Virus record (IMG/VR): IMGVR_UViG_2897328257_000003
Origin: a virus
Taxonomy: Duplodnaviria > Heunggongvirae > Uroviricota > Caudoviricetes
Strand: one strand, 5' to 3'
DNA: 64,000 bases
In this document: piece by piece, positions 44,836 through 45,153 of the stretch
Position numbering within the stretch: position 1 is the stretch's first letter
Layout: each line of letters opens with the position of its first letter
Notes under the pieces: model-generated
Seen by the model: only the letters and a program-made list of their open reading frames with translations
What the model was told of the DNA's origin: nothing
Database searches by the model: none
Position numbers and translations under genes: made by a program

Positions 44836-44952
44836 AGTGATTATACTGGAATCCAGTTGAGTGTTTATCACTCAATGCAAACGAGGCTGAAAAGGATTGC
44901 CGTCCTTTCGCAGCCTCTGACCACCAACGATAGCGAAAGTATCGAGGTAGCT
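44836..44952 (+). promoter_or_regulatory. Conserved control region shared by both islands, with the palindrome TTGAGTG-N5-CACTCAA (44857-44875)
   Basis: Near-identical to 56445-56559 in island 2; 7-bp inverted repeat with 5-bp spacer; lies upstream of the small-ORF/primase operon. Confidence 0.5.
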
Positions 44953-45153
44953 ATGAGAAATCATACCACACACCCGCAAGGGCGGGACTCGCACAACCTG
45001 AATAAATTCACCTGGCGCTTTATGCAGTGCCTGACAGACAGCATTGCAATATTCACCGTTACCGCTGCCACTGAGCGCGAAGCACGCGCACAGCTGCCGC
45101 ACGCACATCTTATTTTTGTCGCCCGTATTCGTCAGGGGGTGTGCCGTGCTTAA
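44953..45153 (+). CDS. Hypothetical small protein (first gene of the replication-side operon)
   Basis: ATG at 44953 with SD gaggta; homolog in island 2 (56560-56763) with conserved N-terminus MRNH.THPQGRDSHNLNKFTWRF and divergent C-terminus. The six-frame ORF starts at 44857, inside the palindrome. Confidence 0.5.
   Translation: MRNHTTHPQGRDSHNLNKFTWRFMQCLTDSIAIFTVTAATEREARAQLPHAHLIFVARIRQGVCRA

Follow-up and report, generated by a model that had tools for sequence, protein, structure and literature searches.

A shared control block at the head of two early operons

The window analysed here is the whole 64,000-nucleotide stretch of IMG/VR virus record IMGVR_UViG_2897328257_000003 (Caudoviricetes), which carries two phage satellites, island 1 and island 2. 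Island 1 is of the capsid-forming phage-inducible chromosomal island (cf-PICI) type and island 2 of the PICI type. Each contains one copy of an almost identical block (Table 1) at the head of its first rightward operon. A sequence-only reading of the window had noticed about 180 bp of near-identity in both islands and, within it, the palindrome TTGAGTG-N5-CACTCAA, a 7-bp inverted repeat with a 5-bp spacer. Both observations were confirmed, and the location at the first operon holds as well. The palindrome, which had been said to overlap the start of the first operon, does not overlap a start codon.

The two copies agree in 184 of 186 positions, with mismatches at 44966 and 45018. They are identical over the first ~128 bases, and both differences lie beyond that. 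The left edge of the block is merely the first readable base, since a run of N ends there in both copies. The right edge is genuine and falls at about codon 24 of an Icd-like gene: the Icd-like genes of the two islands are near-identical over the first 23 codons only, and the identity stops at 56630. The copies are one homologous element and not independent occurrences.

From left to right the block comprises a -10 hexamer, an operator termed O3, a leader with three hairpins (HP1 to HP3), a Shine-Dalgarno (SD) sequence and 23 codons from the 5' end of the Icd-like gene. It is thus a control region of the ordinary kind, in which promoter and operator are followed by a structured leader and the start of a gene. 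The operon continues with small open reading frames (ORFs), a DUF4222 gene and the primase gene. We consider it fairly probable that the block represents the promoter-proximal end of this early (Icd-like/replication) operon in the two satellites. Comparison with complete genomes and 20 or more related loci reveals a divergent control region, of which the block forms the right half. Exchange of a regulatory cassette would explain why the block is almost the same in satellites which are otherwise 68-92% identical; the right-hand recombination boundary of the cassette would then lie inside the Icd-like gene.

Table 1. Positions of the features in the window. HP, hairpin; aa, amino acids.
Feature	Island 1	Island 2	Strand	Basis or remark
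Shared block, copy 1 (cf-PICI-type island)	44838-45023		+	-10 hexamer to codon 24 of Icd-like gene
Shared block, copy 2 (PICI-type island)		56445-56630	+	directly after 11-N run; in complete-genome relatives ylcI, alpA and int lie on its left side
Predicted -10 hexamer TATACT of rightward early promoter	44842-44847	56449-56454	+	promoter scan of intact homologue L004
Operator O3 ACTGGAaTCCAGT, 13 bp, over -10 and +1	44845-44857	56452-56464	.	sole window matches at 0-1 mismatch
HP1, palindrome TTGAGTG-tttat-CACTCAA	44857-44875	56464-56482	+	folding, structural alignment
HP2, extended stem with bulge (GAGGCTG...CAGCCTC)	44883-44917	56490-56524	+	covariation
HP3 (CGATA-7-TATCG)	44928-44944; with SD to 44947	56535-56554	+	abuts SD GAGG 44944-44947
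Icd-like small protein gene, 66 aa, first of early/replication operon	44953-45153		+	NF033153, E=1e-14; RefSeq annotation of homologues
Icd-like small protein gene, 67 aa		56560-56763	+	NF033153, E=2e-19
alpA	43684-43872		+	PF05930, E=5e-18
N-run over left half of control region	44213-44835		.	contents inferred from intact homologues L001, L002, L004
11-N run between right end of island 1 (attR would follow after 146 bp) and island-2 interior	56434-56444		.	probably contig joint

The start codon of the Icd-like gene is the ATG at 44953 and 56560, according to RefSeq annotation and the NF033153 model. An ORF of 98 aa that begins with a TTG inside the palindrome was rejected: RefSeq and NF033153 take the ATG, the peptide of the extension is not conserved, the leader lengths differ by non-multiples of three and one relative has in-frame stops. 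In PHROGs the Icd-like proteins are filed under phrog_6196, 'transcriptional repressor'. The match begins at profile position 27 of 93, so some annotations seem to take the longer ORF from the TTG. A scan of the genome contigs for the Icd-like protein gave a single locus.

Predicted promoter and operators

The left half of the control region was reconstructed from three intact homologues (L001, L002 and L004), which are 96-99% identical to the window over the block. There the gene order is alpA, a minus-strand gene for a 59-aa YlcI/YnfO protein (WP_000439004.1; NF041551, E=2e-20), an intergenic region of ~195 bp, and then the Icd-like, DUF4222 and primase genes. The YlcI/YnfO gene starts 80 bp to the left of the block. 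Judged by these homologues, the N-run of 623 bases in island 1 should hold the -35 hexamer, two further operators, O1 and O2, and a minus-strand gene of the YlcI/YnfO family. No complete Escherichia coli genome was found with the same combination of cassettes across the masked bases; the best matches are mosaics with another gap length.

The 195-bp intergenic region of the intact relatives contains three related palindromes, O1 (TACTGGAaTCCAGTA), O2 (AAGTGGAtTCCACTT) and O3 (ACTGGAaTCCAGT), of which only O3 is visible in the window. A promoter scan of L004 predicts TTGAAG-18-TATACT; the -35 hexamer TTGAAG of the window would fall under the N-run. Related cassettes likewise have a TTGAnn hexamer at offset 63 and a TATAnT hexamer at offset 87. 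With the L004 promoter placed in this way, O2 lies in the spacer between -35 and -10 and O3 lies across -10 and +1. Counted from the ylcI start, sites of the form [CG]TG-N5-CA[CG] have offsets of 24, 69 and 92-104 in 11 cassette types, and of 24, 69 and 92 in homologues. Palindromic operators which overlie a regulated promoter and have cores matched to the protein are what is expected of a switch of the Arc/Mnt/CopG type, and this is the arrangement found here. O1 to O3 are probably repressor operators. A scan of the window found no copy of the O3 sequence near either capsid operon.

In the mechanism that we propose, O1 to O3 would be the operators of the divergently encoded 59-aa protein, which would belong to the ribbon-helix-helix (RHH) class. 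When bound, it would occlude and shut the early promoter; O1 would lie at the promoter of the repressor gene itself, which would probably be autoregulated. One and the same repressor would control satellites that share an operator set.

YlcI/YnfO proteins as candidate repressors

The YlcI family comprises 108 homologues across the Enterobacterales. Our comparative loci cover ten YlcI alleles, with E. coli variants and IMG/VR contigs in addition. In most of them the genes have a common order, in which the int/alpA side is followed by the YlcI gene and by divergent small ORFs leading to DUF4222 and primase. The order differs in L014-L016, L029 and L030.

The central bases of the operators change together with residues 12-17 of YlcI, which are predicted to form a beta-strand (Table 2). 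The operator 11-mers are identical in 9.8 of 11 positions within a cassette, in 9.4 of 11 between cassettes with the same strand residues and in 7.3 of 11 otherwise.

Table 2. Residues of the predicted YlcI beta-strand and the operator cores found with them.
YlcI strand	Operator core	Genera or species
QK(L/V)QARAP	GGAATCC	E. coli, Klebsiella, Xenorhabdus, Yersinia
QKMSARV	GGGTGCC	Serratia
QQKTARV	GCAAGTC	E. coli
KKLEARV	GGCTGAC	E. coli
QQLNARF	GCGATTC	E. coli
QSVTARI	GTAAGAC	E. coli

RHH proteins have a beta-alpha-alpha fold and dimerise by way of the N-terminal strand. The AlphaFold2 (AF2) model of the YlcI monomer (pLDDT 83) has an extended N-terminus and two helices. An hhalign comparison with Arc places strand and helix 1 in register (E=1e-3, probability 19%), and the sub-threshold Pfam hits of YlcI are to RHH families. 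In PHROGs the family is filed as of unknown function. An RHH fold is supported by these comparisons but is not secure; for DNA binding by YlcI, the co-variation of operator and protein is the stronger argument. The better candidate for the regulator of this region is a repressor of the YlcI/YnfO family and not an activator.

The palindrome as a probable leader RNA hairpin

The predicted untranslated leader has a length of about 98-101 nt and folds into three hairpins with a minimum free energy of -34 kcal/mol (z=-3.6). The palindrome forms HP1. It adjoins O3 and begins 9 nt past the -10 hexamer, which is ~2-3 nt into the predicted transcript (about +3). The sequence TTGAGTGTTTATCACTCAA occurs in the two copies of the block and, even with up to 2 mismatches allowed, nowhere else in the window. 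As a structure the palindrome is not rare in itself: the 27 kb of real sequence contain ~19 perfect inverted repeats with arms of 7 bp or more and spacers of 3-8 nt.

HP2 has strong support. In its stem 85% of the cells are paired, compared with 31-46% in slid registers; 9 of the 13 pairs show compensatory changes, and none of 500 shuffles reached the score. This strong covariation indicates that the leader region works as RNA in this orientation.

HP1 was compared in nine variants from five genera on a structural alignment made by hand. Of its 63 cells 60 are paired; compensatory changes affect two pairs, G·U wobbles occur at two positions, and the loops range from 5 to 9 nt. The stem UUGAGUG/CACUCAA of the window (loop 5) corresponds to UUGAGUG/CACUCGA in Klebsiella (a U·G pair, loop 6), to UUGGAUG/CAUUCAA in Serratia (a G·U pair and a change of G-C to A-U, loop 6), to UUGAAUG/CAUUCAA in Xenorhabdus (loop 6) and to UUGAUAG/CUAUCAA in Yersinia (loop 9). 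Among near-identical E. coli cassettes the differences are mainly in the loop (TTTAT, ACTAT), and the terminal pair is lost in two. MAFFT and RNAalifold on whole leaders did not recover HP1; the alignment shifted the 3' arm in some sequences. The variable spacing of the arms and the G·U positions argue for an RNA stem-loop and against a DNA site bound by a dimer, as which the palindrome had been read before. The palindrome is most likely, on this comparative evidence, a leader RNA hairpin next to a probable operator, and as such a subsidiary RNA element of the region.

Other cassettes with O3 at offset 92-94 have different hairpins of 5-8 bp in the position of HP1, such as CACCUUG-uuaaug-CAAGGUG in L003 and L006 and shorter ones in L020, L026 and L029. 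Compared with shuffled sequences, the hairpin in this position has P ~0.01 in five of the nine cassette types tested, 0.07 in two and ~0.3 in two. These data also bear on the question whether the palindrome is a chance inverted repeat which has no function of its own and is carried along in a conserved cassette. The abundance of comparable repeats in the window would fit such an origin, as would the facts that the two copies count as one evolutionary event and that two cassette types have no counterpart. A chance repeat does not account for a hairpin that stands 9 nt downstream of the -10 in all other cassette types with O3 at offset 92-94, with P ~0.01 in the majority of those tested, nor for a stem that is kept by compensatory substitutions, and we regard this explanation as unlikely.

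It was also considered whether the palindrome is a fourth operator of the O1-O3 class, recognized by the YlcI of the same island or by a second, heterologous YlcI/YnfO allele. Some islands do have two YlcI-family genes (in tandem in L004), and the core GTG-TTTAT-CAC fits the generic operator form of all cassettes. The closest cassettes, however, have GTG-N6-CAC (Klebsiella), ATG-N6-CAT (Serratia and Xenorhabdus) or TAG-N9-CTA (Yersinia) at this place, and the central TTTAT is unrelated to GGAATCC and varies freely (ACTAT, AACTA) in otherwise identical cassettes. As both spacing and arms change in the relatives, a fourth operator was set aside as quite improbable.

A role in a leftward promoter of the repressor gene is hardly to be expected at all. 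Here the palindrome would supply a -35 TAAACA (reverse complement TGTTTA) for a promoter overlapping the rightward -10, and a consensus scan of the minus strand indeed finds TAAACA-16-TATAAT with 10 of 12 matches. This hexamer is destroyed in near-identical cassettes (TGACTA, TAACTA) and missing in the versions from Klebsiella, Serratia, Xenorhabdus and Yersinia, and most cassettes have a better conserved leftward -10, TATACT beside O1.

As a leader hairpin, HP1 would act after transcription start as a 5'-terminal stem-loop of 7-8 bp. To judge by its position, its most likely role would be protection of the mRNA from decay that depends on the 5' end; it would also contribute to a structured leader which extends as far as the ribosome-binding site. 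The geometry of a 5'-terminal hairpin fits if transcription starts 6-8 nt past TATACT. Stem-loops about 0-4 nt from the 5' terminus are known to stabilise E. coli mRNAs, as in the 5' untranslated region of ompA, and their disruption shortens the half-life of the mRNA, and HP1 resembles this type in that it begins a few nucleotides from the predicted 5' end.

Three other RNA elements were tried and rejected. An intrinsic terminator or attenuator has a G+C-rich hairpin with a U-run behind it; here HP1 is followed by TGCAAACG and HP2 by TGACCACC, and a terminator scan of an intact homologue found none in the leader. A boxB hairpin of a lambdoid nut site has a stem of ~5 bp and a pentaloop of the GNRNA type and is preceded by a boxA; here the loop UUUAU varies freely, and there is no CGCTCTTA-like boxA in 44836-44953. 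Immunity by antisense RNA of the C4, isrK or P4 CI kind was rejected for lack of an Rfam match: no family, with C4 (RF01695), isrK (RF01394) and c4-a1b1 (RF03163) included, matches the block in the window (E<=1) or in the intact homologue L001 (E<=5). This negative result has power, since the same search finds C4, isrK and c4-a1b1 in another locus, L007.

A segment of the leader with the consensus CTRACCACCAACGATAGCnnnnnTATCGAGGTAGCTATG (within 44883-44952 and 56490-56559) is conserved much more broadly than the operators are: some 1000 E. coli genomes match solely the part of the block with the HP3 segment and the start codon. For this conserved segment and HP2, no Rfam family was found.

AlpA and the capsid operons

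AlpA is an activator required for the induction of Gram-negative PICIs, and its expression is induced by helper phages; the repressor of these elements was called "unclear" (PMC6092414). The earlier proposal was that the palindrome is the DNA site of an activator, AlpA or a helper-phage protein, and that related half-sites upstream of both capsid operons allow replication and capsid modules of both satellites to be switched together. In its favour, besides the known role of AlpA, an 11-mer, GTTGAGTGTTT, recurs 45 nt upstream of the capsid ATG of island 1. The half-site gttgagtgttt is present at 49329-49339. The half-site given for island 2, cagttgtggttt at 60612-60623, does not contain the motif. 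In a scan of the window TTGAGTG was observed 5 times with 3.0 expected; four of the five occurrences are arms of the palindrome itself, so there is no enrichment.

The 11-mer upstream of the capsid gene is moreover kept in L003, a cf-PICI whose cassette has no palindrome. Among 17 other elements with a palindrome-type cassette none has a second copy of GTTGAGTGTTT, and seven have no copy at all. The link to the capsid operons was rejected on these grounds: the motif is not enriched, cagttgtggttt does not match, and the 11-mer is uncoupled from the palindrome.

Nor does the palindrome follow the AlpA alleles. The AlpA of the window is identical to those of L003, L004 and L010, which have three different cassettes, and only that of L004 has the palindrome; L001 combines a palindrome cassette with a clearly different AlpA. 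Since AlpA and palindrome assort independently, the palindrome is not the cognate site of AlpA. Together with the arm spacing of 5-9 nt and the loss of DNA symmetry at the G·U positions, this makes an activator site very improbable. AlpA may act elsewhere in the control region, given that its site is undefined in the literature. Of the suggested co-regulation of both satellites, the part that stays plausible is one by way of the same operator, not by way of an activator or of capsid half-sites.

A 12-mer, AATCATGATTAT, whose part AATCATGATT is itself palindromic, occurs exactly once upstream of each capsid operon (49200-49211 and 60579-60590) and overlaps -10-like hexamers (TATTCT, TATAAT). 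L003 likewise contains it, as do three IMG/VR satellites at the matching distance, and L004 has AATCGTGATT. The 12-mer is a better candidate for a shared control element of the late operons than the TTGAGTG half-sites.

Relation to known immunity systems

The region resembles the immI region of phage P22 (Mnt/Arc, divergent Pmnt/Pant). Both have a small protein of the RHH type encoded divergently from the operon that it would control, and short palindromic operators over -10 and +1; the strand and helix of YlcI are in register with Arc. In contrast to P22, there are three operators at fixed spacing here instead of one per repressor, and the operon leads from the Icd-like gene to the primase and does not encode an antirepressor. 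The similarity to Arc is also weak, and binding by YlcI is predicted.

The immI region of P1/P7 (c4 antisense RNA, icd, ant) and the P4 CI RNA are similar in that an Icd-like gene comes first after a structured leader. They differ in that no Rfam family was found in the window block or in L001, and the candidate immunity factor here is a protein. The zone between alpA and the replication genes was described as dynamic and as sometimes carrying C4/isrK immunity RNAs (PMC10111431). The same pattern is seen in L007 (E. coli STEC307), where isrK (80 bits), c4-a1b1 and C4 (75 bits) lie at 1636-1834, between the conserved leader and the Icd-like gene. Protein- and RNA-based immunity cassettes appear, from these loci, to be interchangeable at the slot before the Icd-like gene.

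The Stl/Rpr repressors of Gram-positive PICIs, the Staphylococcus aureus pathogenicity islands, are likewise encoded by a divergent gene between the int side and the excision/replication operon (PMC6092414). They are large helix-turn-helix proteins, whereas YlcI is a predicted RHH-type protein of 59 aa in Gram-negative elements.

The block is thus of an already established type of switch, and what would be new is the YlcI/YnfO repressor candidate. In a wider and tentative form, which we hold to be possible but would rate somewhat below even, YlcI/YnfO proteins would act in Gram-negative PICIs and cf-PICIs as the master repressors, or as determinants of immunity. By means of the beta-strand each allele would recognize a triplet of GTG-N5-CAC operators of its own, immunity types would be swapped as cassettes, co-resident satellites with the same cassette, such as the two islands of the window appear to be, would be repressed and induced jointly, and the leader with its three hairpins would add a second layer of control at the RNA level. 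No paper tying YlcI/YnfO to PICI control was found in the literature searched.

Several points weigh against a YlcI-repressed promoter followed by a hairpin leader. The transcription start is predicted from the -10 only, and the ylcI gene, O1, O2 and the -35 are hidden under N-runs in the window. The evidence for the fold of YlcI is weak: Foldseek against the PDB, a PDB sequence search and Pfam above threshold gave nothing significant. The covariation of HP1 amounts to few independent events, the cassette types L009 and L017 have no separate HP1, and formally a DNA-binding protein that tolerates different spacers may act at the palindrome. The published model of Gram-negative PICIs, finally, is one of activation by AlpA and contains no repressor (PMC6092414).

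If the proposal is correct, a small divergent repressor with allele-specific operators over the early promoter would be the missing off-switch of Gram-negative PICIs. The mosaic character of the stretch from alpA to the replication genes would be explained by interchangeable immunity cassettes, either protein repressors or C4/isrK RNAs, and co-resident satellites with a shared cassette should cross-regulate. The block points in this way to a candidate for a so far undescribed repressor and operator code of Gram-negative PICIs, a more interesting by-product than the palindrome.

The two islands and their assembly

Readable sequence is restricted to 36270-64000, with N at 1-36269, 43242-43252, 44213-44835 and 56434-56444. 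It opens with potB-potA-pepT-roxA of E. coli, followed by island 1, 11 N and island 2. By gene content both elements belong to the Gram-negative PICIs and cf-PICIs. Island 1 has int (41912-43162), alpA, the 623-N run, the Icd-like gene and primase (46056-47804), followed by genes for SSB, a PerC-like protein, capsid, protease, portal, connectors, HNH, TerS and TerL, and it ends at 55724. The cf-PICI gene set is complete in it: int, alpA and the gene for a P4-type primase have the same orientation, and the genes from capsid to TerS/TerL are present. This typing rests on the ORFs, on the PF05930 match of AlpA and on the way in which RefSeq annotates a close relative, an island with a 100% identical right end. 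Island 2 begins in the middle of an element at the shared block and continues with the Icd-like gene, primase, SSB, a PerC-like protein, capsid, a decoration protein and TerS. The int and alpA of this PICI-type element are outside the window and present in its relatives.

The two islands are most likely, as far as the assembled sequence indicates, separate satellites of one draft genome placed end to end. No complete E. coli genome spans the joint 56433/56445, and all matches end exactly at 56433. The right end of island 1 has a 100% identical counterpart in NZ_CP073589, where the sequence runs 146 bp further to attR (core CGGTGTAGTTAATGGTGTAGT) and then to phoQ. Elements of the island-2 type are found in tqsA with int, alpA and ylcI genes of their own. 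In addition, an exact 136-bp duplicate (43106-43241 and 43253-43388), covering the 3' end of int and downstream sequence, flanks the 11-N run 43242-43252; complete genomes contain this stretch once. Contig ends that overlap and were joined by Ns leave such a signature, so that the window appears to be a stitched draft. For these four reasons the islands are probably not adjacent. A tandem integration was judged less likely than concatenation of contigs. The ~128 bp of identity at the start of the block with divergence behind it would likewise resemble contigs that leave a collapsed repeat in an assembly graph with k≈127.

A second shared block of 825 bp (48225-49046 and 59549-60373, 92% identity) contains the genes for SSB and the PerC-family protein just upstream of the capsid operons. 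Past divergent sequence downstream of it, an identical terminator-like hairpin of 24 bp follows at 49099-49122 and 60416-60439. By these shared stretches both satellites are mosaics with several exchanged modules. A conserved ORF of 93 aa is found at the end of both satellites (55738-56019 and 63330-63611), with 90% identity over the first 63 nt. The right end of island 2 (63640-63830) contains an imperfect direct repeat of ~70 nt (…AAAGCAAAGCnCAAAATTGCGCTGGCTGAATnATCATTATGATTAC…GCAGATGATTAAGG), and a related sequence, CTGGCTGAATGGTCATAATGACCACGCAGA, is present at the right end of island 1 (~56270-56300). These right-end repeats could be packaging or replication signals.

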